From: Tubulanus polymorphus
Taxonomy: Eukaryota > Animalia > Nemertea
Length of the DNA stretch: 64,000 bases
Assembly: GCF_964204645.1 (NCBI RefSeq)
Contig: NC_134028.1
Coordinates: 10,850,001 to 10,914,000 of the forward strand
Reading direction: 5' to 3'
Shown: piece by piece, positions 1 through 21,761 of the stretch
Position numbering within the stretch: the stretch's first letter is position 1
How the letters are laid out: the number at the start of each line of letters is the position of its first letter
Notes under the pieces: generated by a model
Database searches by the model: none
What the model saw: the letters and a program-made list of their open reading frames with translations, nothing else
What the model was told of the DNA's origin: nothing
Translations under genes and position numbers: made by a program

Positions 1-2756
1 ATAATTTATCAAAAAGTTTAGTTGATAATGATTTTGTTATAACTCGATATTATTATCCAAATAAACAAGATTTTAATTTATTGAGATCAATTAAAAGAGG
101 AGTATGTGAAGTGTTTAATAGAACATTAAATATTTGGAACCATTTTAAGATGAAAAATCATGGTGAATTAGTAGATTTATATTTAAAATCAGATGTTATG
201 ATATTGGCTGACATATTTGAAAAATTTAGAGAAGTTAATTTGAATCATTTTAATGTTGATCCTTGTTATTGCTACTCTAGTCCTGGTTTAACCTGGCAAT
301 GTGGTTTAAAATACACAAATGTAGAATTAGATTTATTAAAAGAACCAGACATGGTTTTATTATTTGAAAAATCAATTAGAGGTGGAATTAGTGGTGTTAT
401 GGGAGATAGATATTTTAAAGCAAATGATGAATATAAATTATCATATATTGACGCCAATAATTTATATGGTCGGGCAATGATGCAACATCAACCATATAAA
501 AATTTTATATTAACAGAAGTTGAAAATGATGATAAAACTGATTGGGAAAGCGCAATTGCGAGTTTAAAAGATGAAGCACCAATTGGTTATTTCTTTGTAG
601 TTGATTTAGAATATCCTGAAAATATAAAGTTTAAAACAAGAAACTTACCTTATTGCCCAGAACATTTAACTGTAGATGATAGTTATTTAAGTGAATACCA
701 GAAGAAAATAAAACCGAAAGATCATGTTTTACAGAAAAATTAATACTTACTCAAAATAATAAATACAATATCGTTCATTATAGAATATTAAAATTTTATC
801 TAAAACAAGGAATGAAATTAAAGAAAGTACATGGATATATTGAATTTAATCAATCGAAGTGGTTAGAAAAATATATAGATTTCAATACTCAACAGAGAAC
901 CATATCAAAAACAGATTTTGAAAAAGATTTCTTCAAATTAATGAACAATAGTTTTTATGGTAAAACATGCGAACATATTAGAAATAGAAATGATATTGAA
1001 TTAGTAAATAATTCTAAAAGATTAAGACATTTACAATCAAGTCCTAGACATTTAGGAAATAAAAGATTTGAAGATTATTTAACAGCAGTTAAATTAAAAA
1101 GAACGTCAATGAAATTTAATAAACCTATATTCATTGGTTCAACTGTTTTAGAAGTATCAAAATTATTAATGTATGATTTTTATTATAATGTTTTACAACC
1201 ACTTTTTGGGGAAAAGCATATTGAAATATTATATTTTGATTCTGTAACAGCTGACACCCCAATATTATTAAAATGTAATGATAAAATATTAATTAGAAGA
1301 ATTTCAGAAATAATTCCAAAACAAAATGAATGTTATATTTCATATGGTGAAAAAGAATTAATACAAATAAATGGATTAATGGATGTTTGGAAAAGAAATG
1401 TATGGAAAAAATTAAAGAATATTATTAGACATAAAACAAATAAGAAAATCTATAGAGTTAGAACTAAATTAGGATTTGTAGATGTTACAGAAGATCATAG
1501 TTTAATTAAACGAAATGGCGATGAAATAAAACCAACTGATATAAAAATTGGAGATGAATTATTACATAAAAGATTTTTCCAAAGAATGAATCATATGTCA
1601 TTTGATGCAATTATTGATAATATTTATAATATAGAACCTGAAACATTAGAAGAAAAAGAATATTTTATCAAAGGATTTTTCATGGGTGATGGTTCAGCAG
1701 GTTTGTATAATTATGTTTGGGGTAATAAATATTGTTGGTATTTATGCAATCAAGACTTAAAATTATTAGAAAGAATTAAGAAATTCTGTGAAGAAGTATA
1801 TCCAAATAAAACATTTAAAATCATGGATGTTATGAAATCATCAGCAGTTTATAGAATACTTGTAAATAATCCTAAAGATTTTGCTATAAAATATAATGAT
1901 GAATTCTATATTCATGCAATAGTGAAAAGTAATACTTCAACAAAAGAAAGGATAGTACCAGATTATGTATTAAATGCAAAAAATAATTTAAGAAAGTGGT
2001 TCTTCATTGGATTCTATGCCGCAGATGGCACTAAAAAATTTACAAAGGATAAAAAGATAACCTTTGCACAGAAAGGAAAAGTTGCTATATCAGGATTAAA
2101 TATATTATGCAGTCCATTAGGATTTAATATGAATACAGAATTAATTAAAACTAAACCAAATTGTTTTAATTTAAGGCATGTAGAAAAAGAATTAACAGAA
2201 GAAGTTAAAGATTTATTTGAAATATATAACCCATCAGATTATGTTTATGATTTATCAACTGAAGATGGTACATTTTTAACTGTGGATTTCCATTAATTGC
2301 AAAAAATACTGATGCGTACATACTAAAAATCAAGACAAATGACATAACAAAAGACTTAAAAACATTAAAACATCATTTTGATTTTAGCAATTATCCCAAA
2401 GATCATGAACTATTTAGCAATGATAATAAAAAGATTCCTGGTAAGTTGAATTAGGGGGTGATGAAATGATTGAATTTGTTGGGATAAGAAGTAAAATGTA
2501 TAGTTACAGAACAAAAGATCATGAAGCTAAAAAGTTAAAAGGAATAACAAAACATGTGGTTGTTAAACATATAGAATTTCAAGATTATATAAAGTGTTTA
2601 TATAACTCAATTGTAATGAAACACAAAATAAATTGTTTAAGATCAGAAGATCACGAGATGTACATTAATGAAGTTGAAAAAACTAGTTTGAATCCATTTG
2701 ATGATAAAAGGCATATTTTAGATGATGGTATAAAAACATTACCTTATGGCCATTAA
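1..2756 (+). pseudogene. polB: Protein-primed family B DNA polymerase (pPolB), frameshifted, intein-containing, 5' part outside window
   Basis: Motifs YLKSDVMILAD, SIRGG, YIDANNLYG, FFKLMNNSFYGKT, YFD|...|TD, FVGIRSKMY, KLKGI and FDDKR are spread over ORFs 81-743, 812-2296, an unlisted frame at 2281-2450, and 2466-2756. Confidence 0.93.
1241..2307 (+). mobile_element. Intein (~355 aa) with LAGLIDADG homing endonuclease, inserted at the PolB catalytic YxD|TD (pol-c type) site
   Basis: Begins YFD|SVTADTPILL (block A). Block B VDVTEDHSL. LAGLIDADG-like motifs IKGFFMGDG and FFIGFYAADG. Block F YVYDLSTEDGTF. After a frameshift in the T-run near 2275 it ends CGFPLIAKN|TD (terminal Asn, +1 Thr). 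Confidence 0.92.
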
Positions 2757-4081
2757 AACAGAAAATCAATATCATCATACTCGAAATCACTATTGGCTTC
2801 TTCATTTTCATTTAATTGTTCTTGTATAATTTGTTTAGGTTCTTCCATTTCATTTTTCTCATTTAAATAAAGTTCTATCTTGTACCACATTTCATCTCGC
2901 TCTCTTTGTTTCTTTTTGTTTGTTAATTCGTCAAATGGAATTATAATATCGATGTTCAAATAATTTACAATCATATTTAAAAAGAATTCATAATTAATTG
3001 AATCTGTTATTCTATTTTCCAAATGATACATTAATATTTGTTTGAATATTTTTTTTATATTTTCCATATCTTCTTCTGTTAATTTAGGTTTTTCATAATA
3101 ATCGTTAAATAATAAATATAAATACATTTTCTTTTGTTTTGTGTTAAATGATGATGGAATAATTGTTTTTATAATATCTTTTTTAGTTATTTCACCATTT
3201 TTATTTTCTATTATTTTCATTTTTTCAAGCCATTGCATATATTCTGGTGTATGATCTTCTATAGAAAATATTTTAAAAATTTCATCTAGATAATTTAATT
3301 TTGGTTCCATGAGAAAATCTCTAGTTTTTTCATCACCCCATAAATTCTTTTGCCATCCACATTCATTACAAAATAACACAGTACCTTCTTGTCTTAAGGT
3401 CGCATAACTACATTGTGGGCACTTTCGTTTATAATTTATAAGTAATAGATCTTCATTAAGCTCTTGGTATTTTCTTACGTTTTCTTTATGTTTTATTGTT
3501 CTATTATGTAGATTTAAATTACTTGTGGTAATAATCAATTTACAATATTTACAATAATATGTTTTTCTTGTTAATTCATTATATTGTTTTTCTAACTTTT
3601 CAACTGTTTCTTTATTATCTGGTAACGTTTTCTCATATTTTATTTTTTCTAATGAACTATTTTTTCTTTCATTGAATTCTACTTCAAATTTATTAGAAAT
3701 TTTATCTATATGTACTTTACGAAATTGATGATTCTCCCAATCTTCTATATTTTCAGGGCTATATTTTATTTGACAAGGCTCGCAGAAATGATCTTTTATA
3801 TTATCCTTGTCATAGAACAAGAAAGGTCTTTTCCAAATAATTTCAGGTTCAACTTCAGCAAAATTACTATTACTTTCATTAATATCAACATTAGCCGTTG
3901 TGCCATTAATTTTACACTTCTCTGAATGTTTTTTAACATAATTTCTCGAGAATAATTTATTACATTTTGGGCAGTTTATTTTAGGGGGTTTATAATTTTC
4001 ATCATGTTTTTTCATATGTCGAGCCATATTACTTTTTGTTAGAAGTTCACCACAAATTTCACATGCTGTCTTCTAATCCAT
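2753..4081 (-). CDS. Multi-zinc-finger protein with C-terminal VLTF3-like (NCLDV late transcription factor) domain; original ATG at 4081 is followed by an early stop
   Basis: C2H2-like fingers (CEICG...RHMKKH; CKYCK...HNRTIKH), zinc ribbon CPQC-x13-CNECG, and a C-terminal INYEFFL...KKKQRERDEMWYKI segment resembling the VLTF3 C-terminus (recalled pattern). Confidence 0.6.
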
Positions 4082-4149
4082 TTATTTAGGAAAAATTTTA
4101 TTAAGATTAATTTTTAGTGATGAGCGGTAATTTTTTTATGTTATAAATA

Positions 4150-4909
4150 ATGGTAGAATTAAAAGAATACAGAATATTTGTTGATTCTAGAAAACTTACA
4201 AATTATAAATCACATAATTTATTAGTACAATTAGATAGAGAATTTAAGAATTGTGTAGATTTAAAATTAGTAAATATAAGTTTATGTAATTCTTTTTATA
4301 ATGTATCGGATAAAAGTCTAGAACATTCAATTTTTTCAATCTTTTACAAAAAAAAGGAATAAATGGTTTTTTATATATTTAAAACCAGGATTATATAATT
4401 TAGATACATTAGCACAAGAAATTAATAGAAAAGCTCGAGCTAAATTAGGAAGTGATTCCGGATTTAGTATTAGAATTTTAAAAAGTGATAGTTCTAATAA
4501 AATAAAGATTAGGTTAGCTAATGACGAACAATTTAAATTTACAGTAAGAAAACCTTTAGGTAAACTGTTAGGAATAAACCCAGATATTGTTACAGCATAC
4601 GCAGAAGGTAGATCAAACTTAATACCTTACACACATTTTTATATTTATTGCAATTTAATTAATCCTACAAAAACATTTGAAGCAACTAAAGATACAATTT
4701 GTAATTCTAGTATATTAAATATTTTACCATTAAAAAATGTTAAACAATTTGGAACGCAAATAAATTATAATTTAGCTGAATGTGATTTTAAACCTTGTAT
4801 TCCACATTTCAATAATTTTAAATTAGAAATAAGAAATCATAATGGTTATTTAATTGATTTGAATAACTTTCCTGTAACATATGAATTAGTTATAAGATGT
4901 AAAGAGTAA
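4150..4909 (+). pseudogene. Putative minor capsid (penton) protein, frameshifted near 4350-4380
   Basis: Joined frames give ~250 aa with IFVDS, NSFYNV, PGLYN, FYIYCNLI and EIRNHNGYLIDLNNFPVTYEL, the usual Polinton penton pattern. Confidence 0.7.
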
Positions 4910-4985
4910 TTTTTTCATTATATAAATGAATATAACTGTTTGACCGAGTATATGTTTTGGATTTGATTTTAAACGTGAGAAAGAA

Positions 4986-5282
4986 ATGAAATTTGATATT
5001 AATGATGTAATAACACATATTAAAAATATTGCATTTTCTAATGAAACAACATTTGAATATGAAACAACAATAAATAAAGAAACTATAAATGTAGAAAAGA
5101 TTACTAATTTAATTAGAAAATCTTTAAGATTTTATGAATTAGATGAAGATTTTATCATAGATGATATTAAAAACATATTAACCAAAATATATGATAATCA
5201 TAAAAGTAGTAATGAAATAAATGTTGAAATAATCATAAATAAGATAACTAAATATTTTGAAGATAGTAATTTTTTTGATTAA
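4986..5282 (+). CDS. Hypothetical Polinton protein (upstream TAAATG at 4926 followed by a stop)
   Basis: Short ORF in the co-oriented gene array. Confidence 0.4.
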   Translation: MKFDINDVITHIKNIAFSNETTFEYETTINKETINVEKITNLIRKSLRFYELDEDFIIDDIKNILTKIYDNHKSSNEINVEIIINKITKYFEDSNFFD

Positions 5283-5285
5283 TTA

Positions 5286-5507
5286 ATGAGTGGTAATAAG
5301 TGGATAATAACTGGATTATATAATGGAGCATTACTATCAGTTGGAACTGTTGGTTATTCAATGGTATTAAAAAAAGTATTCAAAATGGAAAGTGTTAATG
5401 TTGATAGATTTGATATAAATGACATCTTAAAATTAACATTAGCAGTTACTTTATCTAATTTAACTATTGATTATTTGGAAAAACAAAAATATATTCCTCC
5501 CATATAA
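5286..5507 (+). CDS. Small hydrophobic Polinton protein (73 aa)
   Basis: Intact ORF with two hydrophobic helices, preceded by the T-run/TAATG motif. Confidence 0.6.
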   Translation: MSGNKWIITGLYNGALLSVGTVGYSMVLKKVFKMESVNVDRFDINDILKLTLAVTLSNLTIDYLEKQKYIPPI

Positions 5508-5531
5508 ATACATAATTATTTTACTAAATAA

Positions 5532-5953
5532 ATGGCTTCTGCAGTTATAACTATTATAGGATCGGCAATTGTTAACGCTTTAGCTTTACTGGTGGGGGTT
5601 ATTTATTTAAACATATTGATAAAAATGGATAATTAACAGAACAAAAAAGACATAACTTAGCATTAGAGAAATACACTAAAACAGCAGAAGAATATAGAGA
5701 AAAGAGACAAAACTATATGGATTATATTAACAAGGAATTATATGATCAGAAGATTTCACATAGAGATTTTCAATCAGTTGATGATGCAATGAGTTTATAT
5801 AACGCGGTAACCAATAAAGAAAAATTACATCTACATAAACCTACAATATCAGATTATTATACCCCGAGTAATGAACAGAAGAAATATGAAATAATATGGA
5901 TTTTAGGTGGAACTGTTATTGTTATATTTGTTGCTTATAAGTTTACTAATTAG
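5532..5953 (+). pseudogene. Small membrane-anchored coiled-coil protein (MASAVITIIGSAIVNALAF...EQKRHNLALE...C-terminal TM)
   Basis: TAAATG start at 5532; frameshift and stop before listed ORF 5717-5953; C-terminal hydrophobic helix. Confidence 0.6.
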
Positions 5954-5973
5954 TAATTTTTTTTGCTAAACAA

Positions 5974-6420
5974 ATGGATGATAAAGATAATATTGATATT
6001 ATTCCTCATGATATAAATAAAACTAAATTAAAAATATATTTAGAAAAACAAATATTAGAATTTGAAAGTGACTTAAAAGTTAAAAAGAAAAAATATATAA
6101 AATCTAAAATTATATATTAAAATTATATATTAAAATTATATATTATTTGATTATAAGTGGTTCGGTTACAATTAGTTCTGTAATAACATTTCTAGCAATA
6201 TTTTCACCATTAACACCTTTAAGCTATATCAATTGGTGTATTAGGATTAAGTTCAAGTGTTTTAACTGGTATAAGTTCAAAATTAAATATAAAAAGTAAT
6301 AAAGAAAAAATTAAAACTAATATAAAAGAAATTAATAAATTGAAGAATACACTAGATTATACAATAAGTTTAAATGGCCATATAACAGTTGAAGAACAAG
6401 ATAAATTATTAAAATTAATA
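5974..6420 (+). pseudogene. Two-TM coiled-coil Polinton protein disrupted by a 13-bp triplication (TAAAATTATATAT) near 6106-6145
   Basis: ATG at 5974; hydrophobic stretches ILIISGSVTISSVITFLAIF and IGVLGLSSSVLTG are read across frames. Confidence 0.45.
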
Positions 6421-7355
6421 TTAGATGAATTAGAATGTCCTTTACCAGGTTCAAAATATTTTAAAGAATTGAATAATAATATTAATTTTTCTAAGTTTTA
6501 TAAAATATGTAATGAATTTAATATTAATTCAAATAAAGATTTTAGAGCAAAAATTGGAACAATGGGTGGATTAGGAATATTATATACTAAAGAATTTGGA
6601 AAAATAATGAAATTCAGATATAAGAACATTAAATTTGAATGAATTACCAAAATATTATGATAATATACAACAACAAAATAATAATGGTTGGGTTTATTTC
6701 ATTTTAGAAAATAGTGAAGGTTTTACTAAAGCTGGTATACAAAGAATAAATCAATCAATTAGAACTTATTTGATATGTATTTTAGGTGCGCAAGTTGAAA
6801 CAAGATCGCCAATAGTTGGAAATGATAACACTTCATTCGATGCGCAGAAACAATTCAAAGTATTATTTGAAGATTCCATTCATAATGATAAAAATAGATC
6901 GATTCCAGAAAACATTGTAAGATATCAAAATTCTTTAGATAAATCACATATTAGACTAAATTATTATATAGGCCCTAATCTATTAATTATTTCTAATGAT
7001 TTAGTATTAAAGATGGGAAATATAATTGGTTACAATAATCTAATTAAAACTGCAACAATAAATAATTCATTTGGATTAAATGATATAAATAAAAAGATTA
7101 TTACTGCTCCAAAATTAATGGAAGGTGAAAAAAAATAAAAAACATATTCAATCAACAGAAACTAAAACTAAGAATATTAAATTAAATAATGATTCTAAAA
7201 TAAAAGATTGTAATACATCAGAAAATATTAAAACTGATAATATTCAACATGATATAATTAAAACTGATAATGATAATAAATCCCATGAAAATACTAAATT
7301 AGCTTTAACTTGTATAGGAATTGTTATAGGAGCAATATTATATTTTAAATTTTAA
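6410..7355 (+). pseudogene. Polinton structural/membrane protein of unknown function, frameshifted
   Basis: Pieces ILDELECPLPG, GWVYFILENSEGFTKAGIQRINQSIRTYLICILGAQVETR, FDAQKQF and a C-terminal TM helix across ORFs 6340-6642, 6635-7138 and 7125-7355. Confidence 0.55.
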
Positions 7356-7371
7356 TTTTTTTATTATATAA

Positions 7372-9059
7372 ATGGATGTAGAAGGTGAAGATATTGGAAT
7401 GTATAATTTTGACAATAACATTTGCTCCTGAAAATGAAATTGTAATATCTAGCGTTGATAAAGATATGAGTTATAAATTATCGAATATATGTTTAGAATA
7501 TGACACAGTAACTGATGAAAATATTTCAAGTATAATTCAAACTCAATACAATCAAGGATTTTCATTATTATATGATTATATTGATAAATTTAAAACTGTA
7601 ACTATTAATGCAAATGATGAAATTATTAATGAGAATATTAACTTCCCAAGAAGATAATTTTGATGAACCTGGCATAACTGATGAACAACAACCTGATTTT
7701 AGTGAAACAAGTTTTAATGGCGGTAATGAGCCAGAATATAATAATAATTTAAATATGCCTGATTATATTAAAAATGCAGAATCACAATTAAATCCTGAAA
7801 ATTTAGACCCAGATTTAGTAAAACAAGATTTAGATAATTTAAACAAAATACCTAAATTAGAACGTATAATTGAAAATTCTAAACTTAACATAAATGATGA
7901 AGACGTTGGACCTTTAGCAGATCAATTAAAATTTTTAGATAATGGTAAGTGGTATTATCATTTGAAAGGTATTTATTATATTGATATCACTTATAAAAAT
8001 AATAAAAATAAAATATTAACAAAATCAACTTTGAGTGATTTAGATCCAGATAGAATTAAAAGAATTAGTAATAGTAATGTAATAACTGATGTTATAAAAC
8101 AAGAATTAACTGATAATGATATAGACGTATTTAAACAAAGAATTAATGAATTATTTGAAATAATCAAAAAGAAATCAGAAACAGAAACAACTTCTGAACA
8201 GAATATAACTTCCAAAACTAGTAAACTTAAATCAAATAAAGTTCCAATTGAAAAACTTTTACCGAATGGATTAATTGATGCAACAGATCAAGAATTAGAA
8301 GGTTTGAATAATATATTTTCTGTTGAAGCAATTAGAGAAATTAAAAGTATAAGACTTGCATCCGATAAAATTGCGCATGATAAAAGTATAAGAGATTTTA
8401 AAATTAGAACTTTAGAAAAAGAATTAACTGATAAAAATAAAGAAATAGAACAATTAAAGTCTGATTTAGATCATCAAGTAATTGATGAAATAGAATATAG
8501 GCAAAAAGAATTACGATTAGAAAAAGAAATTAATAATTTAAAAGATAATTTAGAAGTACAGAAAGAAGAAATTAAATTATTATTAAAATCATATGATTAT
8601 AATATTAATAGATTAAAAGTTATTTTTAAAGATTTGTTGATTAAACCAAATTCTGAAATATCATTGAAAGATAGAATAAAGTTAGTATTTAAATTAGAAG
8701 GAATAACAATTCTTTCAATTTTAACAGCTGTAACTATGTTATTTACAACAATTGGTTTAGCTTTATCAAATGCTTTAAAATCTACTCCTACTCCCAATAA
8801 ACCAGATAAACCCCCGAATGATAATAATTCTATACAAGATAAAGTTAAAGATGGTTTAAAGAAATTAGCAAAATATTTATGGGAACTATCTAAAAAACCT
8901 GCTGCAGCTTTACCAGGAATTATTGCATCAATTGTTGGTTTTATATTGAAATCTGCTGGGAATATTCTTAACTTTGCTGCTGAACATATTATTTTATTTT
9001 TAATTACAGTTGTAAGTGCAATTATTTTTGGGTTAGTAAACATGATCAAAAATAAATAA
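7372..9059 (+). CDS. Coiled-coil protein with C-terminal hydrophobic/amphipathic helices; 5' end interrupted by an inserted capsid-gene fragment
   Basis: TAAATG start at 7372 (MDVEGEDIG); long heptad region; hydrophobic segments ITILSILTAVTMLFTTIGLAL and ALPGIIASIVGFIL...IILFLITVV. Confidence 0.65.
7414..7655 (+). repeat. 242-bp copy of major capsid gene segment 9634-9875
   Basis: Identical apart from one base seen (7431 vs 9651); flanked by ATAATTTTGA at 7403-7412 and 7654-7663. Confidence 0.9.
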
Positions 9060-9079
9060 TTAATTTTTTTGTTAAATAA

Positions 9080-10327
9080 ATGAGTGGGAGTTATATCAAT
9101 CCTTCTAAGAATCATAGAATATCTAATGCTATTAAAGCAGAAAGATCACATCATATAATTACTCATAACTCTTCTAATATTAATCCCGATGAAACTTTAT
9201 ATGTTAGAATTCCTCGATTAACACAAAATACTTTTTATGTTCCAAATAGTATTTATTTATCAGCCGATATAAAAGTAACCGGTAATAATAATAATTATGT
9301 TGTCGATAATGTTGGAAGATATTTGATTAAAAAATTAACTATAAAGATTGGTCCAGAAACAGTTTTCTCATTAGATGATTATAATTTATTCATGCATTAT
9401 AAAGATTTATGGTTAACTAAAGAAAATAGAAATAATATGATATTTCAAGGCATCCAATCAGAAAACCAAAATAAATTAAGATCAGAAGCTAATAGCGCAA
9501 TATTAACTAATGCCGTAGATAAATTGATAAAAAGTATATATGGAATCAAATATAAAATTCCATTAGACTTTGAATTGATAAATAACAATGCACCTTTATA
9601 TAAATACGCAATTCAAGAAGACGTTATATTCGAAATAACATTTGCTCCTGTAAATGAAATTGTAATATCTAGCGTTGATAAAGATATGAGTTATAAATTA
9701 TCGAATATATGTTTAGAATATGACACAGTAACTGATGAAAATATTTCAAGTATAATTCAAACTCAATACAATCAAGGATTTTCATTATTATATGATTATA
9801 TTGATAAATTTAAAACTGTAACTATTAATGCAAATGATGAAATTATTAATGAGAATATTAACTTCCCAAGAAGATCTATTAAAGGTATATTAATATTTTT
9901 TACCATTGCAACATATAATAATGGTGCAATAAATGTTGATAATTATTGTAATCCTGAAATAACAAAAGTAGAAATAACTATCGAAGGAATAGCAAATAAA
10001 ATATTTTGTCAAGGAATGAGAATGATTGATCAATGGCCAGAAATTAGAAAACATTTTATGAATGAAAAAGTAAAATCATCTGAAAATTGTAACATTAATC
10101 AAATTGATTATTATACCGGTAATAAATATGCATTATGGTTAGATTTTAGAACAACAGAGGATAATTCATTACATGGTTCTGGAAAAAAACTACAGAACAC
10201 TAAAGATGGAATACAATTATTCATGACAAAGAATAAAGGAATCAAAAATTTTAAAATGCACATTTATATTATATCTGACGCACAATTAAATATTGTAAAT
10301 TGTCAATTAAATAGTGTTACGTATTAA
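9080..10327 (+). CDS. Putative major capsid protein (double jelly-roll), intact 415 aa
   Basis: Size, beta-rich composition, LSNICLEYD and LWLDFR segments, and position in the structural module. Confidence 0.75.
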   Translation: MSGSYINPSKNHRISNAIKAERSHHIITHNSSNINPDETLYVRIPRLTQNTFYVPNSIYLSADIKVTGNNNNYVVDNVGRYLIKKLTIKIGPETVFSLDDYNLFMHYKDLWLTKENRNNMIFQGIQSENQNKLRSEANSAILTNAVDKLIKSIYGIKYKIPLDFELINNNAPLYKYAIQEDVIFEITFAPVNEIVISSVDKDMSYKLSNICLEYDTVTDENISSIIQTQYNQGFSLLYDYIDKFKTVTINANDEIINENINFPRRSIKGILIFFTIATYNNGAINVDNYCNPEITKVEITIEGIANKIFCQGMRMIDQWPEIRKHFMNEKVKSSENCNINQIDYYTGNKYALWLDFRTTEDNSLHGSGKKLQNTKDGIQLFMTKNKGIKNFKMHIYIISDAQLNIVNCQLNSVTY

Positions 10328-10550
10328 AATTTTAACTTTAATAAAAATTTATATAATAAATGGAAGGAGGTTAAGTATATAAACATATTCCATACATCGA
10401 TACACATGAAAATAATGATGGTTTATATTATGTAATACCTTGTAATATAGCTTTGATATTTGATCCTATTTTCAAAATTTATAAAACTAAACTAATAGAA
10501 ATCGATAATAATAAAAGTGGTGTTGTTGATAATTTAAGTAATGTAATTGA

Positions 10551-10702
10551 TAATAATGTAATACCTTCTACATCTAATAATGTAATACCTACTACATCTA
10601 ATAATGTAATACCTACTACATCTAATAATGTAATACCTTCTACATCTAATAATGTTATACCTTCTACATCTAATAATGTAATACCTTCTACATCTAATAA
10701 TG
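10551..10702 (+). repeat. Coding 24-bp tandem repeat (x6), NNVIP(S/T)TS
   Basis: AATAATGTAATACCT(T/A)CTACATCT units. Confidence 0.9.
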
Positions 10703-10993
10703 AAATAATATTAAATGTTAGTGAAAATAGAAATTATTGTGATTATTGTAAAGGCGAATTTTCAAACGCTCCATCAAATTGGAATAATCATATGAATACA
10801 AATTCACATATTACTAATGTTATAAAACGTGTTGGATGAAGAACACCTAATAAAGATGAATTAGATTTAACCGATGCTATTAAATTAGAATCAAACATTG
10901 TAAATGAAATATTAGGAGCAAACACTAATAAAGATAATAACGAAAATGGCGCCGTATGGCACCCACATGGTGATATAGTTACAGATAAGCATA

Positions 10994-11238
10994 AGATAAA
11001 ATCCCACTATTTACAGATTAAAAGAATTTAAAAACAAGAATTTATTTATTAAATCTAAAATATTTAAAAGACACGACGTTTCGATCTCACCCTAGAGATC
11101 GGTGAGATCGAAACGTCGTGTCTTTAAAATATTTTAGATTTAATAAATAAATTCTTGTTTTTAAATTCTTTTAATCTGTAAATAGTGGGATTTTATCTTA
11201 TTATCCGTTCACCACGTTTGAGTGTGGTCATCGTTCTA
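10994..11238. mobile_element. Palindromic Penelope-like pLTR remnant with partial hammerhead motif and 14-bp TSD
   Basis: ~105-bp inverted arms; GATCTC-N6-GAGATC-GAAACGTC followed by AATAAA; TACAGATAAGCATA at 10980-10993 and 11239-11252. Confidence 0.7.
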
Positions 11239-11562
11239 TACAGATAAGCATATTGATAATAAAGATTCTATGAAACTTGAATCAGAAAATAAAGATATAG
11301 TTGAGATGACTAATAAGTATATCAATAAACCAATTATTTATGAAGATACGGTAAAAAGGGTAAAGAATAAGTACACAAATAATAAAGAATTTGAAGAAGA
11401 AAATTCGGTAGAGAATTTGAATAGATTGTTAGGGTCTGATGATGAATTGGAGAGTGATGATGAAAGTGATTCAGAAAGTGATTATCTAACACTCAAAAAG
11501 TAATAAACGTTGAAAATTGTATAAAATAATAGTAAATAAAAAAGGGGGTTTTAAGTATTAAG

Positions 11563-11676
11563 GTATCTAATACGTATCTAATACGTATCTAATACGTATT
11601 TAATACATATCTAATACGTATCTAATACGTATCTAATACATATCTAATACGTATCTAATACGTATTTAATACGTAT
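11563..11676. repeat. 11-bp tandem repeat (TATCTAATACG ~x10) between convergent genes; shorter copies near 11847-11882 and 14237-14272
   Basis: Read directly; each array follows AAAAAGGGGGTTTTAAG. Confidence 0.9.
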
Positions 11677-11899
11677 TATTTCAAAATACCTTAAATTATA
11701 TTTTTTTAAAATTTATATTAGAAACCTCAGTAATAATAAATAACCTTTATTATTTTCAAACTTATTCATATATTAGTTGAAAAAAATAAAAATAAATTGG
11801 TTGGAAATTGTATGAATAATATTTATTTTAAAAAAGGGGGTTTTAAGTATTAATGTATTTAATACGTATTTAATACGTATTAGATAGATATATAAATAG

Positions 11900-12511
11900 T
11901 TATTTTATAAATTTATATTCATATGGAAATTGTAATCTCAGTAATAATTTTGAACCTTTATTATTCTTAAATTCATTCATATATTCATCATGTAATTCAG
12001 TAGGTATAATTTGATTTTCTTCCAATGATTGTTGCATAGATTTTTTATCTTTGTTATAAAATAAAACTAGAAATCTTATATTCTCCCTAAAGTCTTTAAC
12101 AATTGAATTATATTTTTGATTTAAAACCCATGTTGTTATCCCAAAATGTCTCCCAGAGAAAGCTAGATAACATAACTCACTTTCTCTAACTTTTGAATCA
12201 TGTAAATTTGCGCAATCATCTATAATGAATAATGTATTTGATCCTTTATAAGTATCAATTGCTATTTTAATACAATTATCTAAATTTTCTTTTACTGTTT
12301 TAGGATTTAATATAATAAACTTTTTTATCTTAACTATATCTCTATTATATGTTTTATTCATTTCATAAGTAGGACAGAATAATATTATATTATCAAAATG
12401 ATTCTTATAAATAGTTTCTAACAAATCTAATATGAAATGTGTTTTACCACAATTGGTTACACCAGTAACTAACATATTATGCGGTTCAAATATAAATAAA
12501 TCTTTATTCAT
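11900..12511 (-). CDS. A32-like (FtsK/HerA) genome-packaging ATPase, copy 1
   Basis: Walker A GVTNCGKT, Walker B LFIIDD, GRH arginine finger, LNQ sensor. Confidence 0.9.
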   Translation of the reverse strand: MNKDLFIFEPHNMLVTGVTNCGKTHFILDLLETIYKNHFDNIILFCPTYEMNKTYNRDIVKIKKFIILNPKTVKENLDNCIKIAIDTYKGSNTLFIIDDCANLHDSKVRESELCYLAFSGRHFGITTWVLNQKYNSIVKDFRENIRFLVLFYNKDKKSMQQSLEENQIIPTELHDEYMNEFKNNKGSKLLLRLQFPYEYKFIK

Positions 12512-13060
12512 TTATTCTTTTAATTTCACTAGATAAAATCCATTCATTAAATTTATCATCATATCCTTTATATTTCACCAAAGAATACTTTTTTCCTTTA
12601 AGAGTTTTTGTTTTCAATACTTTTTCTATTTTGTATTCTATTTCATCTGGATTTGGTACAAGTGATAATTCTTGTTCATAGAAATAACCTAATATTTGTT
12701 CGTCTTTTAAATCTTCTAATTTATAAACAAATGGTTTAGTTAATATTATCTTTTTAATCTTGAATATTTCTTCAGTAAAATTTGGGGTATAACCTTTATA
12801 AAATGTTTTTCTATATTTAGATATTCTGACGTGTTGTCCTATTTTAAATTTAGGTTCTCCGAAATCATGTGTAACAAATGCTCCATATAAATTATTCCAA
12901 ACTATTTCTGAATTATCTTCATTTCTAGCTTGTATAGGTTTCATATTTATAGAACTATGTTCAGAATTATTATTACCTTTCACTAAATCATCTAATACAT
13001 CGATATATTCATATGTTTCATTAGCAGTAAAATATTTCCACATTCTAGTTTTCAATGAGT
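12504..13060 (-). pseudogene. Polinton integrase, C-terminal half with chromodomain only (catalytic DDE core absent), copy 1
   Basis: LKTRMWKYFT, HSSINMKP, PKFKIGQHVRISK, KGYTPNFTEEIF, GYFYEQEL; chromodomain YKIEKVL...LVKYKGYDDKFNEWI. Confidence 0.85.
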
Positions 13061-13698
13061 TCATTATTTGGATCATTGTTCCATTGATCAATAAATTTCT
13101 TTGCCTTTGTTAACTGTTCTAAATATAACTGTAAATCTAGTTTATTAGATTTGATTTGATTTTCTTTCTTTTCTAAAGGCCTTAAATTTTTCCAACCCCA
13201 AATAAGTTTTTTATTGTATTCATCATTCATGTTAAATTTAGATATTGGTAACACGTGATCAATATGGTAATAATCCCCATAATTATCTACATTCATCTTA
13301 TCATCGAATTGAAATATAATCCATGATTTGAGAAATTCATCTGAACAACCCAATAGAATAGATAGTGTTTCTGAATGTGTTTCTTTGTTGAATAATTGTG
13401 TTAATCTAGATCTTAAGCATTGTTTAAATCAAAAATTAAGATCTGTTTGATATCTTTCTCTCATATATTCTGCCATATAATAATTATAATGTTCTATATT
13501 ATCTTCTCGGTATTGTTTAGTATATAGTTTAAAACAAGTTTTACAACAATATTGAAAACCATCTTTGCTAATCTTACGCTTACTAAATTCTGTTAAAGCT
13601 AATTTATCTAATTCACATTTAGAACACTTCTTGTAATATATATTTATAACACCAGTGTTATTTGTAATATTGATAGTTTGTGGTTGTTCTGGTTCCAT
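13045..13698 (-). pseudogene. HNH endonuclease with N-terminal CxxC zinc motif; one in-frame TGA at 13429-13431; copy 1
   Basis: ORFs 13429-13698 and 13045-13353 share a frame. KKCSKC...KDGFQYCCKTC, LGCSDEFLKSW, NYGDYYHIDHVLP...NLRPL...ENQIK. Confidence 0.85.
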
Positions 13699-13849
13699 TT
13701 ATTATACGTATTTTTTACTAAATTGGTTAATATTTTAGAATCCTCTTCCATTTCTTCGACCAACGTCATCCTTTTTCATTCCTCGCTGCTTTTGATAAAT
13801 TGTTTCGATTCCTTGATATCTAAATAATACCACTGGGCAAATACCATTA

Positions 13850-14147
13850 AGCAAAAGCGCGCATGAATGCGCGCTTTTGCTTAATGCGCATGCGTTAATC
13901 ATAATTATACATTCATTATGTAAATTCTGTAAAATAGAAACAACCGAACACAGAAAATATCAAAACGTGTTCGCATTAGGCAAAACCGCGCATTCATGCG
14001 CGGTTTTGCTCAATGCGCATGCGTTAATCATAATTATATATTCATTATGTAAATTCTGTAAAATAGAAACAACCGACATGAAATATCTAAACGTGTTCGC
14101 ATTAGGCAAACCGCGCATTCATGCGCGGTTTTGCTCAATGCGCATGC
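13850..14147. repeat. ~120-bp tandem units, each with a GC-rich hairpin GCAAAACCGCGC-ATTCAT-GCGCGGTTTTGC (continued at 16240-16660)
   Basis: Read directly; three hairpins here and four in the second array. Confidence 0.9.
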
Positions 14148-14289
14148 AAACTTATTCATATATTAGTTGAAAAAAATAAAAATAAATTGGTTGGAAATTG
14201 TATGAATAATATTTATTTTAAAAAAGGGGGTTTTAAGTATTAATGTATTTAATACGTATTTAATACGTATTAGATAGATATATAAATAG

Positions 14290-14901
14290 TTATTTTATAA
14301 ATTTATATTCATATGGAAATTGTAATCTCAGTAATAATTTTGAACCTTTATTATTCTTAAATTCATTCATATATTCATCATGTAATTCAGTAGGTATAAT
14401 TTGATTTTCTTCCAATGATTGTTGCATAGATTTTTTATCTTTGTTATAAAATAAAACTAGAAATCTTATATTCTCCCTAAAGTCTTTAACAATTGAATTA
14501 TATTTTTGATTTAAAACCCATGTTGTTATCCCAAAATGTCTCCCAGAGAAAGCTAGATAACATAACTCACTTTCTCTAACTTTTGAATCATGTAAATTTG
14601 CGCAATCATCTATAATGAATAATGTATTTGATCCTTTATAAGTATCAATTGCTATTTTAATACAATTATCTAAATTTTCTTTTACTGTTTTAGGATTTAA
14701 TATAATAAACTTTTTTATCTTAACTATATCTCTATTATATGTTTTATTCATTTCATAAGTAGGACAGAATAATATTATATTATCAAAATGATTCTTATAA
14801 ATAGTTTCTAACAAATCTAATATGAAATGTGTTTTACCACAATTGGTTACACCAGTAACTAACATATTATGCGGTTCAAATATAAATAAATCTTTATTCA
14901 T
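14290..14901 (-). CDS. Packaging ATPase, copy 2
   Basis: Same translation as 11900-12511. Confidence 0.9.
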   Translation of the reverse strand: MNKDLFIFEPHNMLVTGVTNCGKTHFILDLLETIYKNHFDNIILFCPTYEMNKTYNRDIVKIKKFIILNPKTVKENLDNCIKIAIDTYKGSNTLFIIDDCANLHDSKVRESELCYLAFSGRHFGITTWVLNQKYNSIVKDFRENIRFLVLFYNKDKKSMQQSLEENQIIPTELHDEYMNEFKNNKGSKLLLRLQFPYEYKFIK

Positions 14902-15450
14902 TTATTCTTTTAATTTCACTAGATAAAATCCATTCATTAAATTTATCATCATATCCTTTATATTTCACCAAAGAATACTTTTTTCCTTTAAGAGTTTTTG
15001 TTTTCAATACTTTTTCTATTTTGTATTCTATTTCATCTGGATTTGGTACAAGTGATAATTCTTGTTCATAGAAATAACCTAATATTTGTTCGTCTTTTAA
15101 ATCTTCTAATTTATAAACAAATGGTTTAGTTAATATTATCTTTTTAATCTTGAATATTTCTTCAGTAAAATTTGGGGTATAACCTTTATAAAATGTTTTT
15201 CTATATTTAGATATTCTGACGTGTTGTCCTATTTTAAATTTAGGTTCTCCGAAATCATGTGTAACAAATGCTCCATATAAATTATTCCAAACTATTTCTG
15301 AATTATCTTCATTTCTAGCTTGTATAGGTTTCATATTTATAGAACTATGTTCAGAATTATTATTACCTTTCACTAAATCATCTAATACATCGATATATTC
15401 ATATGTTTCATTAGCAGTAAAATATTTCCACATTCTAGTTTTCAATGAGT
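14894..15450 (-). pseudogene. Integrase C-terminal half, copy 2
   Basis: Same as copy 1. Confidence 0.85.
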
Positions 15451-16088
15451 TCATTATTTGGATCATTGTTCCATTGATCAATAAATTTCTTTGCCTTTGT
15501 TAACTGTTCTAAATATAACTGTAAATCTAGTTTATTAGATTTGATTTGATTTTCTTTCTTTTCTAAAGGCCTTAAATTTTTCCAACCCCAAATAAGTTTT
15601 TTATTGTATTCATCATTCATGTTAAATTTAGATATTGGTAACACGTGATCAATATGGTAATAATCCCCATAATTATCTACATTCATCTTATCATCGAATT
15701 GAAATATAATCCATGATTTGAGAAATTCATCTGAACAACCCAATAGAATAGATAGTGTTTCTGAATGTGTTTCTTTGTTGAATAATTGTGTTAATCTAGA
15801 TCTTAAGCATTGTTTAAATCAAAAATTAAGATCTGTTTGATATCTTTCTCTCATATATTCTGCCATATAATAATTATAATGTTCTATATTATCTTCTCGG
15901 TATTGTTTAGTATATAGTTTAAAACAAGTTTTACAACAATATTGAAAACCATCTTTGCTAATCTTACGCTTACTAAATTCTGTTAAAGCTAATTTATCTA
16001 ATTCACATTTAGAACACTTCTTGTAATATATATTTATAACACCAGTGTTATTTGTAATATTGATAGTTTGTGGTTGTTCTGGTTCCAT
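15435..16088 (-). pseudogene. HNH endonuclease, copy 2
   Basis: Same as copy 1. Confidence 0.85.
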
Positions 16089-17565
16089 TTATTATACGTA
16101 TTTTTTACTAAATTGGTTAATATTTTAGAATCCTCTTCCATTTCTTCGACCAACGTCATCCTTTTTCATTCCTCGCTGCTTTTGATAAATTGTTTCGATT
16201 CCTTGATATCTAAATAATACCACTGGGCAAATACCATTAAGCAAAAGCGCGCATGAATGCGCGCTTTTGCTTAATGCGCATGCGTTAATCATAATTATAC
16301 ATTCATTATGTAAATTCTGTAAAATAGAAACAACCGAACACAGAAAATATCAAAACGTGTTCGCATTAGGCAAAACCGCGCATTCATGCGCGGTTTTGCT
16401 CAATGCGCATGCGTTAATCATAATTATATATTCATTATGTAAATTCTGTAAAATAGAAACAACCGACATGAAATATCTAAACGTGTTCGCATTAGGCAAA
16501 CCGCGCATTCATGCGCGGTTTTGCTCAATGCGCATGCGTTAATCATAATTATATATTCATTATGTAAATAGAAACAACCGACATGAAATATCTAAATCAT
16601 ACCACTGAGCAAAACCGCGCATTCGTGCGCGGTTTTGCTCAATGCGCATGCGCTAATCCTAATTATATATTCATTCTGAATAGAAACGTCCGAACATAAA
16701 AATTCGCCAATCAGATTTACACAATACATTATACAAGTTGTTCGGCCGTTTCTTCCAATACATCATTTGATATCTATAAATACAATTTATAATTACAAAC
16801 ATTTTTCAATTGCTGGTAAATATTTAACTACATCAACAAATGTTAAACTTAATCATTGGAGTCTTAATGTTTTTGAAATTCTTATATAGTTTCTTCGTCG
16901 ATCTTTTGGCGATTCTTGTGTTTCTTGTGCTAATTTCTATTGGTTCGATATCCCCATTGCTGTTGATTCCTCAGTCAGAAAGAGTATCTTGAGTTTCTCT
17001 ATCACTTCTTGATGCGTATGGCGTTTTATTAATCTAAAAGATATTAGCGGCAACTCTAGCCATCTAAAAGATATACTAAATACACTTAAATATATCTAAA
17101 GGTTTCATATTTAATAGCCCTAATAACTACAAAAAACAGTACTTACATTTAGATTTAGAATTGTAAACTATAAACTCCTAATTTCGTTTCGAGAGATAGA
17201 ATATCCTGAGCGTAATGTTACAGCGCCTGTTCATTTCTTGCCACGTCATCTGGTTCCGGTTCTAGAGTGTTCTACACGTTTGTAATATTATGACTCATAT
17301 GTCTCGGCGTCATAGTAACAGCTGTAACAGCTGTGAATTTATAGATTTATTCAATAGTTCATTACATGAAATGTATATAGGCTCAAATAGAATCATGTTC
17401 TAGTATAAACAGCTATGCATTATTTCAATCACACTTTACTAACACTTTTAATGTTTAAAAATCTAACTCACACAAATATGAATATTGAAATAATGTTGTA
17501 AATATATACTTTTATATTGAATAATCTGTCAACTTAAATGTTATTCATTTACATGAATATTTTAA

Positions 17566-17984
17566 GAGTAATAGGGGTAATGGGCTTTCAGGTTAAAGGT
17601 TGAATGGTCGAGTTCATTAAAAACAAATATTAAAAGTAATTTAAAACTATAATATATTTTCATAACCGTGTGTATTTCAGTTGAATAATAGAATAATTAT
17701 TATTATTAAAATATATTTGATTATATGAATTTGTGTATTGTAAATAAATCAATTGGTCGCGGAGCGGAGCGGTAGCGAAGTGGAGCGACCAATTGATTTA
17801 GGCCCTAATACAATATGCTTTTAAAATTAAAATTATTAATATCTTAGAATAAATATTTAGTTATAATATAAAATACACACGGTTATGAAAATATATTATA
17901 GTTTTAAATTACTTTTAATGTTTTGTTTTTTATTGAGCTCGACCGTTCGACCTTTGGCTTGAAAGCCCATTACCCCTATTACTC
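17566..17984. repeat. ~420-bp foldback (GAGTAATAGGGGTAATGGGCTTTCA...TGAAAGCCCATTACCCCTATTACTC) with an inner hairpin AAATCAATTGGTCGC...GCGACCAATTGATTT
   Basis: ~110-bp imperfect outer arms and ~15-bp inner arms; no clear TSD. Confidence 0.85.
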
Positions 17985-19282
17985 ATATTATTACCAGGCA
18001 TTTATTCCAATACATTCGAACAAAATACTAATGGCCTACCATTACATTTACCGGAGCATAAACAAACGAGTCATTTGAATAGATGGAGGTAAAGAACCCG
18101 GGAGAAAAATCAGTTGAACATCGTTGAATACGCGCCCGGGTCCCGGCTTTGTTGTAGACTTTTAAGGCTTTTATATACAATGCAATGTTACTATGATTGT
18201 TAAGGAGGGATGACTCACCATATCTAGTCTATCCATAAAAGATCGCTTTAGACTTTAAGAGGATGATGATAAATTCCGAAAGAAAGCGCGATGAAAATGA
18301 ACTTCCGGGTTTGTGTTTATCCACCATCTACGCGCACCTGCCGCTAGCACCGTCACTATGTGGAATCGCGTATAGAATTGAATTTTCTGAAATTTGCTCA
18401 ATAAAACCAAAATTGAATTGGATTTGATGTTTTTATTTGTTCAATAGAATAAAATTGAACTGGATTCAATATTCATTGCTAAATAAAATTCGATTGAATT
18501 TGCAGTTTGAGCACATGGCTAATTAGCATATCAAGGTCATCCATCCGATTTGAGAAAAAGCAATTTTACCAAACTTAACACAATTGTCAATGATAATTTC
18601 TGTAGAGCTAATAAAAATATTCCTCCAAAAAAACAAATCAACCAAAGATTTCACAGAAATCGATCTTAAAATGCAATTTTAGATCTTAAAATTAAACCCG
18701 GAAGTAAAACGGGAGACGATACCGCGGGTTCACGCGAACATATAATAAATAATAAACATTATTATACTGTACGTTCTTTTCTATACAATAAATGAACTTG
18801 AACACCTGCTGATCTGTTTTAAAAAAACAATCATAAATTCACTTTGGTTTATGATTGGCTTTTTAAAAAAGATATTTTTGTGATCAGATTTTCGCGAAAA
18901 AGCTCATAAAACTTTAACGAGGCCCACTCAAAACTCAGCTTCAAAGGGTTTCGAGAATGGATAATGCTTTAATTAACGATTTGTATGAATATATGGTCAG
19001 ACTGATATTTGCTTACACGAAGTAGTAGGCCATTACGTCAAATTATCTATGTAAGATTAATTAAGACAAATTACTTGGGTTACAGGAGTAGTTTTTAGTT
19101 ACCGGGGGCCGGTTCCATAGTCGAGACTTAAAATAAGTCTAGTCTTAAGTCATTTGTTTGTCTTAAATCCTCTAAGACCGACTTAACTAAGTCGGTCTTA
19201 ATTTTGCGTTCCAAAGAGTGGTCTTAGTGTTGGTCTTAAGACAGTCTTAAGCCCCTTTTAAGGACTTAAGACTGAATCCAAA

Positions 19283-21761
19283 ATGGCGGAGATTTTAAAT
19301 GACAGTATCGCGCGGAAGAGATCTTTCAATTATACGACGGATGAAACGAATCTTTTAGTTAAATTAGTTAACGACAATAACGCAATTTTATCGGGTGCAT
19401 TTAGCGATACCATAACCGCTAAACGAAAACGCGAAATTTGGAAAGAAATCTGCTCGAAAGTGAACGCGATTGGCGTAGCGCGAAGAACGGTCGACGAAAT
19501 CAAGAAAAAGTGGAAGAATATCAAAGGGGAGGCGAAAAAGAAATTCGTTAAACAAAACAATTTGATTTCGAAAACCGGTGGGGGGGGACCTCCACCCTGA
19601 GTTGGACCAGGCAACTAAGAACTTCACCCAGTCCTGGCAGTGTGGCTGTCTCCACAGTGTATCTACGTTTCTCTACGATCCTGTGTAACCACCCACCCAG
19701 ACACGTCCATTCAAATTGTGGTAGCCTACATCAGACACTAAGATTCTTGGTGAACTAAGAACGTGATCGAATTGTGGTGTGACAATACAACGTGGTACGG
19801 GATCGACGGCGTGGAAACGTTCATTCTACAAAGTAAAATAATTGTTTCTATCTTTTTGGATTTAAATCATTCACGATTCACCATTTGTTTAAGAATGGTG
19901 AGGGTGTGGGATGTTTGTTAGTGTCTAGAGCTCATAGTTTGTTTGTTTTATCAATCTAGCCTGCCCTAACTCATTTTCGTCTGTGTGTAAACAAAGGTGA
20001 CCTTGACCTAGTACGTCACCTGATCACGCACCTGCTAACTGGCAACATTTGAATCGAATCCCAAAGTAATTGACTTTATTGGAAGATCCTACCTTGACAG
20101 CTTTTCGAAGACTTATCCACATATATATCTAACCATATTCCGATCTAGCATTGCATGACTGAACAGTATCCCCGACTAAATCCATAGTATCCCCGACTAA
20201 ATCCATAGCAATAGAGTATTAAACATAATTTAATAAAATCATCGTCGTAAACCGTAGTGTCAGGCGACTGCTCTTTCCCATGAAGTATATTCCCATTCTA
20301 CGCCAGCATGGCTAAATTGACGCATAGTTCGAATCCCGTAAATTCGTATTATTTCTAATTTTAGACGATGTCGATGGAGCGGAGCAAATCGGAAATATTG
20401 AAGCTCCCAATGCAAGACCTCTGACCACAATTACGGCAAATAACCCAGGAAGAAAGACACTAAATATTTGGATGAATATATGAAAGCTGTGGGTACTGGA
20501 GTGTGTAATGGGTAGTGTAGTGTGATCTGTGTGCATTTGTGGCCAGCACACAGATCACATTGTTCATTGGGGTTTGGTCCAGGACTCGCGAGATTTTCAA
20601 CAACACGGAAGTAACGTGTAATAAATGATGACTTGAATCGCATGACTACCTACCACCCCTCATTATTGTTGGAAAACTAAACGTTCCGCACTGACTAAAA
20701 ATTAGTAATAACATTTTAGAAATGGCCAGAATTTTAACTTAGGTTCTATCTCATTTTCATTTTACTATTGCGATTGGTATAATTTCTTTTTAAACGGCCG
20801 TTAAGGCTTGATGTTTCGTCTGCAATTCACTGCAAATAGTTACGCAACTACGCACATTTCAGTGTTTTTGGCAGCTGTACACTCAATCGGTACCGTTCGT
20901 GACTAGCTTCACTGCAGAATTATCATTAATTAACATCGCCATATCATATCATCAACTTATATTGTGCCTTAAAACCCTAACAGCCGAAATAATTGAAATG
21001 CACACACGATTTCTATCATTGAAAATTGAGTGGCCATGTTTGTGTTCTGCTGCTTCGCGTAAATCCCGCGCGGTGGCGCAACCGCGCGGAGTGGGGCCGA
21101 TACGTCTATGTAAAGCTTACATCTAGTTCTTTTACGGTGCTTAAATGATTCCAGTGTATTTTTTGTATGAAAAATAGGCAATGAGTAGTACTAGTATGCT
21201 ACGTAAAACAAATTGTATTTCGACTTATTTTCAGCTCTATTGGTATTCTCGTATGAAATTATTCAATCTTTCATAAATAAATAGTATATTCTTACCGTTG
21301 AAGGAGATGACCAAGCAGATAAACCATTCCAAAATGTAACTCTGATTGAAACGGCTATGGGAGATGGCCCGCTTGTTATGATTGATGGAGGTAAGTATTG
21401 GAAACGTTACATACCGGTATATACTGTATCCCATCTGCAACCCGACTTGGTATCTTGATATTGTGTATACGTGTTTTTCAGGAGTAGGCCTACAGGCAGC
21501 AGATATTGAGCAGGCTAGTTCATCTAAGGCTGATGGTAAATATTTTTCTAAATGAATCAAATTTTGAAGAACTAGAATAGAACGCTTAGTTTAATATTCT
21601 ATTTGATTATAGGCAACAAGAAAAAGAGAACGGCGACACAGGCGGATCTTATCGAGCTTCAGATGGAGTATGTAAAAAGAAAGATGATGAAGACAGACCT
21701 CGAAATAGAAAAACTTAAAATGGAATTATATTTACTGAAACCAGAAAGAAACTTTCCATGA
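19283..21761 (+). pseudogene. Harbinger Myb/SANT-like DNA-binding protein, spliced and apparently interrupted
   Basis: RKRSFNYT..ET..LV, W-x-EI...VNA, RTVDEIKKKW, KTGGG at 19283-19600. Later exon-like pieces at 21482-21535 and 21613-21761 give a coiled coil (DLIELQMEY...DLEIEKLKMEL). Confidence 0.75.

Follow-up and report, generated by a model that had tools for sequence, protein, structure and literature searches.

A Group-2-type Polinton with poxvirus-type late promoters, a VLTF3 homologue and a motif-C polymerase intein as a candidate helper-dependent element

The expression of animal Polintons, and their autonomy as opposed to dependence on a helper virus, are open questions, and no virions have been seen (10.64898/2026.06.19.733378). 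Endogenous virophages match the late promoter of their helper (10.1101/2025.10.09.676808), and entomopoxvirus occlusion bodies contain Polinton-like viruses (PLVs) (PMC11296320). The late factor VLTF3 is already on record for Polintons (PMC8502044), in a subgroup of them according to PMC11131425 (section 8, which cites Krupovic and Koonin 2016). The present analysis concerns a decayed, multi-copy Polinton of Group 2 type, the right part of which occupies bases 1 to ~13,850 of a 64,000-nucleotide stretch of contig NC_134028.1 (Tubulanus polymorphus, assembly GCF_964204645.1), hereafter the window. The element type is already known, as are Polinton VLTF3 and poxvirus-associated PLVs, and the hallmarks are a protein-primed family-B polymerase (pPolB; PF03175, grouping with Polinton pPolBs), the C-half of an rve-type integrase and an A32 ATPase. 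An earlier note on this DNA had related the element to nucleocytoplasmic large DNA viruses (NCLDVs) in general; the promoter and the late factor described below both point to poxviruses in particular, and the note's interpretation is upheld in part.

In vaccinia late promoters TAAATG overlaps the start codon, and at about the tenth base upstream a T is conserved (PMC11980589; PMC5294985). The earlier note had claimed TAAATG on most genes, which holds for the placement of the motif and not for its raw count. The count equals chance (30 observed against 30.1 +/- 5.2 in 200 shuffles), while TAAATG lies at 8 of the 11 starts placed by homology to intact relatives, compared with 22 of 533 other ATGs (binomial p 1e-9); the remaining three starts are near variants, and the open reading frame (ORF) at 11270, which has no homologue, was omitted. 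A set of 80 related metagenome loci, all of them partial, served for comparison. In 12 loci of the window's clade, counted without the near-copy L005 and the partial L014 and L031, TAAATG starts 48 of 54 non-nested ORFs of at least 100 amino acids. It starts 15 of 16 ORFs in a second group of four loci (L037, L039, L046, L059), and 8 of 254 in 61 other Polinton loci (6/111 in the 38 that are AT-rich, 2/143 in the 23 that are GC-richer). These groups were set by a capsid tree and the capsid start, and the clade count is partly conditioned on the capsid gene. In that tree, of 38 rows with a full N-terminus, TAAATG stands at the capsid start in all 14 rows of the window clade (Shimodaira-Hasegawa-like approximate likelihood ratio test, SH-aLRT, 99; GC 20-44%), in four others and in none of the remaining 20. 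Nine viral loci with HNH genes had TAAATG at 2 of 59 ORF starts, and the sole poxvirus-type locus examined at 4 of 7. The capsids of the second group are only ~31-35% identical to that of the window.

In 58 of 61 starts the ninth base upstream of TAAAT is a T, compared with 22 of 73 non-start occurrences of TAAATG (p 1e-15); the fifteenth base is an A in 79% of starts and in 19% of non-start occurrences. The TAA is the stop codon of the preceding gene in just 1 of 53 cases. The promoter is bipartite, with a T-run containing a near-invariant T nine bases upstream of TAAAT and the ATG inside the initiator, and it is lineage-specific, being confined to certain Polinton clades. It matches the poxvirus late promoter in the TAAAT(G) over the start codon, the T-run and the upstream T, which peaks at the ninth base here and at the tenth in the review. 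The VLTF3 gene is itself preceded by this promoter, as are the integrase and the variable cargo (HNH, nucleoside kinase), which leaves no distinct early class in view. Counts of the T5NT terminator track strand bias.

Two further observations concern start motifs. Head-to-head pairs in L009-L013 and at L102:3931-3963 place divergent genes on one short palindromic spacer, CCATTTA...TAAATGG, which occurs in Polintons and the poxvirus-type locus alike. In another Polinton clade (L032, L035, L040, L042, L063), several capsid, ATPase and small-gene starts carry TATAT(AT)ATG, not TAAATG, and resemble the TATATA that African swine fever virus uses as its late initiator (PMC5294985). The various clades of Polintons may be adapted to different helper viruses.

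The second feature that points to poxviruses is a minus-strand gene in which C2H2-type zinc fingers are fused N-terminal to a VLTF3 domain. It has a TAAATG start at 4084 and an in-frame stop at codon 3, followed by an open frame of 439 codons. A direct Pfam/NCBIfam search with the VLTF3 domain gave no match, and a word-based homologue search returned 685 candidates, none at E<=0.01. A full HMMER (phmmer) search of 1.84 billion representatives gave four matches (P0269-P0272), with no Megaviricetes VLTF3 among them. P0269 is the orthologue in the family of L001, a nearly intact relative; P0270 has the same zinc-finger layout, and P0271, which lacks context, is presumed to be Polinton-like. The only clearly non-Polinton match is P0272 (E 6e-4), a protein of 226 amino acids with Pox_VLTF3 (E 1e-24) and an A2L zinc ribbon; one gene of a virus record of 232,392 bp shares 63% identity with it. 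When the window domain and P0269-P0271 were combined into a profile, two poxvirus-type A2L proteins scored 46 and 43 bits, and 1,000 shuffles 3.4 bits or less. Scans of viral contigs with the Polinton VLTF3 alignment gave no match and with a mixed VLTF3 alignment only the already-known record; a VLTF3 search in one giant-virus record also gave no match.

A model of the domain, built without P0272, had a predicted local distance difference test score (pLDDT) of 74. Foldseek ranked cowpox VLTF3 first (E 6e-6, template modelling score 0.56) and entomopoxvirus VLTF3s third and fifth, followed by giant-virus VLTF3s, and the top structural match in the PDB was TFIIB (Z 7.5, root-mean-square deviation 3.3, 95 aligned). 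On sequence comparison the domain is a VLTF3 homologue, its predicted fold being a zinc ribbon with a TFIIB/cyclin-like part, and by best match its affinity appears to be to poxviruses. The VLTF3-like ORF of the earlier note is therefore borne out by HMMER, profile test and fold in agreement; Pfam misses it directly.

The pPolB gene is interrupted at polymerase motif C (YxD|S...N|TD) by an intein at 1241-2307, which confirms the active-site intein that had been reported. It matches TIGR01445 (E 1e-6, over the cut-off) and the Pfam families Intein_splicing and LAGLIDADG_3, and both LAGLIDADG motifs are present with the acidic residue kept. The best 120 of 504 intein matches comprise five of pPolB type, with identities reaching 62%, and 115 family-B polymerases, among them Mimivirus PolB, to whose intein region identity is 37%; the remaining family-B relatives are presumed to be from giant viruses. 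Judged by insertion site, splicing residues, LAGLIDADG motifs and homology, this is a motif-C PolB intein of Mimivirus type. One presumed giant-virus PolB (P0008, residues ~1805-2510) carries two back-to-back motif-C inteins with two residues between them. In the accessible part of a 2018 survey of eukaryotic inteins, nuclear inteins are given for fungi and protists, and none for animals or Poxviridae (PMC5784728).

The five clean-ended Polinton inteins, the window's included, form one clade in two unrooted trees of 117 and 44 rows (SH-aLRT 99 in one, 100/100 in the more careful one). The neighbour of this clade is P0011 in the quick tree and another group in the careful tree; since the trees are unrooted and the neighbour differs, no donor is named. 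Most intein-bearing pPolBs group with that of the window and with an intein-free member of the TAAATG clade (P0005 did not align). In the same species, 40 reads join the exteins directly (1240/1244->2317), compared with a depth of ~290 just inside the intein. A related family, the P0002 cluster (136 members, the best 15 listed, 12 long enough), comprised seven sequences with and five without the intein at 94-99% extein identity, and among those listed its contigs reach 1 Mb. When six intein-bearing and two intein-free sequences of equal length were compared, 9 of 12 fixed differences fell no more than 30 residues from the insertion site and the remaining three no more than 103, the pattern of a co-conversion tract. 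As sequence evidence, the extein-joining reads and the conversion tract suggest homing.

The gene at the right end encodes a free-standing HNH endonuclease with a weak HNH_4 match (E 0.017). Homologues occur at differing positions in L004, L007, L008 and L010, each behind TAAATG, except for the capsid-side neighbours of the L007 gene, which vary. Relatives are found in 20 viral contigs; of 17 such loci scanned, five lie in or beside NCLDV capsid or RNA-polymerase genes, two look like eukaryotic viruses, three are phage-like and seven are unassigned. Scans of viral contigs with the capsid or the L008 HNH gave no match. The giant-virus-style HNH described earlier thus stands as a gene, broken near 13428, with relatives in giant-virus genes and phage-like contigs alike. 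HNH genes are known in PLVs (PMC12220804). L082-L085, L089 and L095 have HNH relatives, probably intron-borne endonucleases, inserted within the NCLDV genes for major capsid protein and RNA polymerase. Another cargo gene, a deoxynucleoside kinase (PF01712, E 1e-31), lies at L001:10340-10981 (-), with TAAATG, and L007:2895-3377 (-). It would suit replication away from nuclear deoxynucleoside triphosphate pools; the L001 kinase has one distant viral match (37%), which is uninformative.

All gene classes seen share one poxvirus-type late promoter, and neither the visible part nor the partial relatives scanned showed an RNA polymerase gene. On these grounds, a co-infecting poxvirus-like virus on balance probably supplies the RNA polymerase that transcribes intact copies of the element, which would then behave as an integrated virophage. 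Integrated copies would be silent until a helper infects the cell, whereupon its late machinery would transcribe them. The element would replicate with its own pPolB and package itself with its own capsid and ATPase, and the zinc-finger-fused VLTF3 may bias the helper polymerase toward the element's promoters. The intein and HNH would each be a parasite in its own right, of giant-virus type; a single, old acquisition of the intein is probable, and it would now spread by homing among Polinton copies with no need of a helper. Both indicate older contact with giant viruses and require no present helper.

Several points weigh against transcription by a poxvirus-like helper. Neither a helper virus nor an element transcript has been observed, the start of the polymerase gene is not seen in any clade member, and the clade ORFs scanned include no poxvirus RNA-polymerase subunit. 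Mriyaviruses, which presumably work in host nuclei, retain VLTF3 although they lack an RNA polymerase (PMC11253617), so VLTF3 alone needs no helper. The TFIIB-like fold (its Z is below the tool's trust threshold of 8) and the zinc fingers would also suit recruitment of host RNA polymerase II, the Foldseek gap between poxvirus and Megaviricetes VLTF3s is small (6e-6 against 3e-4), and the high copy number requires nuclear integration. Finally, the intein and HNH point to Mimiviridae/Megaviricetes and not to poxviruses, so that the parts name no single helper. The parts come from at least two virus groups, and ongoing exchange of mobile elements with one helper, as first proposed, is not supported, the closest relatives of the intein being other Polinton inteins. 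Nesting of the intein and HNH only among Polinton or cellular sequences had been named in advance as a refutation, and this is borne out in part: the intein falls in one Polinton clade, although it belongs to the Mimivirus PolB intein family.

It is unlikely, although a serious contender, that the element is an autonomous nuclear virus whose zinc-finger-VLTF3 protein acts as a private TFIIB-like factor, drawing the host's RNA polymerase II to the element's TAAATG promoters and making a helper unnecessary. The TFIIB structural match, the C2H2 fingers placed before the VLTF3 domain, the many copies in the genome and the retention of VLTF3 by viruses without an RNA polymerase would all fit. However, the VLTF3 gene lies behind the same promoter, so nothing would make the first factor, and a start inside TAAAT would yield an almost leaderless mRNA. 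Poxviruses solve this problem by a poly(A) leader made by slippage. The upstream T at vaccinia spacing also argues against host recruitment.

We regard as quite improbable a helper that is not a poxvirus but another nucleocytovirus with a comparable late initiator of AAATG type, whose factory the intein, HNH and promoter would all reflect. Such a helper would account for the predominance of family-B polymerases among the best intein matches and for the best HNH relatives, which lie in NCLDV genes, but the near-absence of TAAATG from ORF starts in the viral HNH loci, the lack of Megaviricetes VLTF3s among the sequence matches and the separate, old clade of the Polinton inteins all speak against it. 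Least probable, and largely refuted by the statistics, is a relic or compositional effect, in which TAAATG would be an AT-rich translation context, stop-start coupling or a virophage-ancestor leftover with its promoter function gone: the element is indeed 23% GC with TAAATG at chance in total and the window copy is decayed, but clade loci with a GC content as high as 44% keep the motif and other Polintons just as AT-rich lack it, stop-start coupling accounts for a single case, the upstream T is fixed in position, and mobile cargo has acquired the motif.

Helper transcription can be extended to a bolder proposal, which we put forward tentatively and consider to fall somewhat short of probable: the animal germline Polinton lineage would be provirophages of an undiscovered marine poxvirus-like virus, with their own DNA-targeted late factor capturing the helper polymerase, and would harbour the first actively homing intein in animal nuclear genomes.

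The genes run, from left to right, from the protein-primed polymerase, cut by the window start, through a minus-strand zinc-finger gene, a block of small and structural genes, the capsid, the A32 ATPase, an integrase half and HNH to palindromic end repeats, the same order as in L001. The features are as follows.
3..1240, plus strand: pPolB part before the intein (PF03175 E 7e-8; 42-61% identity to Polinton pPolBs).
1241..2307, plus strand: motif-C (pol-c) intein with LAGLIDADG homing endonuclease, frame broken near its C-terminal end.
2308..2756, plus strand: pPolB C-extein, broken near 2454.
2753..4084, minus strand: zinc-finger and VLTF3 gene (poxvirus A2L-like, predicted TFIIB/cyclin fold), VLTF3 domain ~2855-3424.
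4150..4909, plus strand: putative minor capsid gene, frameshifted near 4340-4360 (39-65% identity to the intact L001 ORF 565-1329).
4926..6430, plus strand: four small conserved Polinton ORFs, partly broken, with starts at 4926, 5286, 5532 and 5974, each with a T-run plus TAAATG or a near variant.
6409..7355, plus strand: 3' part of a conserved Polinton protein of ~440 amino acids, 5' part absent (69-83% identity to L001 2996-4324).
7372..9059, plus strand: coiled-coil protein with hydrophobic C-terminus, split by a 242-bp capsid-gene copy at 7414-7655.
9080..10327, plus strand: putative major capsid protein gene, intact, 415 amino acids, TAAATG start, 926 homologues.
10360..11031, plus strand: zinc-finger accessory ORF with 24-bp repeats, broken, TAAATG start (36% identity to L004 2461-3687).
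10991..11201: 101-bp inverted repeat, 99% complementary, probably a rearrangement scar.
11900..12514, minus strand: A32-type packaging ATPase, intact, TAAATG start (Pox_A32 E 3e-12).
12504..13058, minus strand: C-half of a retroviral-type integrase with chromodomain (84% identity to L004 integrase residues 179-361).
13045..13701, minus strand: HNH endonuclease gene, free-standing, with a TAAATG start and a frameshift near 13428.
13845..14146: palindromic repeats of ~125 bp that close the element (hairpin z -9.4).
14147..16705: tandem duplication (ATPase, integrase half, HNH, end repeats) and further end repeats, with host-like DNA after.

The minor capsid label at 4150..4909 is putative, drawn from size and synteny; a Pfam search of this ORF gave no match. 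A fold model of the ~440-amino-acid protein had a pLDDT of 48 and no structural match. The major capsid family gave a weak Capsid_N match in 10 of 25 members and no PDB sequence match; the capsid is linked with the ATPase and pPolB across the 80 loci, and the capsid relatives found are Polinton-type loci. One homologue (P0194, 54%) is labelled as a Bartonella protein and probably represents host contamination of a bacterial assembly. An 11-bp tandem repeat (TAATACGTATC) lies at 11537-11680 between converging gene blocks and recurs in part at 11829-11895. As the earlier note had it, no adenovirus-type protease is found in the visible part; ORFs of the 80 partial loci gave no motif match either, the element's left part lying beyond the window. 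No canonical Polinton terminal motif was found at the right end, the left end again lying beyond the window.

The polymerase and several other frames are broken, most of the rve core is absent with the N-half of the integrase (the L004 integrase has rve and Chromo), and a capsid fragment is inserted at 7414-7655. Bases 11757-14146 are repeated exactly as 14147-16536 (2,390 bp, 0 differences), a tandem duplication that may exist in the genome or may stem from the assembly. Over 1-6000, whole-genome reads from this species reach a depth of ~120-1,100 from 1.9 Gb, mostly at 90-99% identity, and many carry other sequence at the break sites of the window copy. The read depth and this divergence therefore define a multi-copy family, with some hundred copies or more on the assumption of a ~1 Gb genome. 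GC is 21-33% (mostly ~23%) over bases 1 to ~16,700 and ~37% farther right, where Harbinger and LINE (long interspersed nuclear element) sequences, types typical of animals, occur in the flank. The GC step, this flank and the whole-genome reads of one organism make an animal host likely and are the basis for describing the element as an animal-integrated Polinton. The flanking elements include a Harbinger-type transposon at 19262-24389 with a Myb/SANT gene and DDE_Tnp_4 transposase pieces, and a LINE ORF1-like frame at 53738-55627 (-) with DnaJ, PHD and GDSL-esterase domains upstream of the endonuclease-reverse transcriptase. Inverted-repeat elements lie at 33072-35993 (393-bp arms, 93%) and 17563-17987 (a short hairpin like a miniature inverted-repeat transposable element).

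Full-text searches of the openly available literature turned up no Polinton described as having poxvirus promoters or an intein in its polymerase. The lineage-specific poxvirus late promoter makes helper dependence directly testable, and from it one would expect a poxvirus-like virus in hosts in which the present analysis met none. Other start motifs in other Polinton clades suggest that promoters could predict helpers, and an intein whose presence varies among Polinton copies would bring animal chromosomes into the range of inteins and homing.

Among known systems, the entomopoxvirus-associated PLVs (Barth et al. 2024, PMC11296320) share with this lineage the tie of Polinton-like elements to invertebrate poxviruses; they encode an adenovirus-type protease but lack an rve integrase, their capsids are highly divergent, and the terms 'promoter' and 'VLTF' do not occur in the searched text of that paper. 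Poxvirus VLTF3 (vaccinia A2L) and its late promoter share the zinc ribbon, the cyclin/TFIIB-like helical domain and TAAATG with the upstream T, whereas the protein described here has N-terminal C2H2 fingers and ~22-32% identity, and no VLTF1, VLTF2 or RNA polymerase was seen with it. The Mimivirus-type PolB motif-C intein agrees in insertion site, Ser start, K-N end, Thr+1, LAGLIDADG motifs and 37% identity, but here it resides in the protein-primed polymerase of a chromosomal element, forms its own clade and is present or absent among copies. Mavirus and its endogenous relatives (EMALEs) with CroV, and Tetraselmis PLVs with TetV-2, are likewise integrated elements with their own replication and capsid genes and with promoters matching the late class of a large virus; the present lineage differs in its likely animal host, poxvirus-type promoter and own late factor, and reactivation by giant viruses is described for those systems. 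The Group 2 Maverick-Polintons (Polintoviricetes, 'adintoviruses') share the pPolB, rve integrase with chromodomain, A32 ATPase, capsid gene and chromosomal, multi-copy state; the adenovirus-type cysteine protease, found in most Group 1 Polintons, is variable in Group 2. In contrast to what was found described for Group 2, the present lineage has lineage-wide poxvirus late promoters and a motif-C intein, and its VLTF3 is fused to zinc fingers and is closest, among the matches, to poxvirus A2L.

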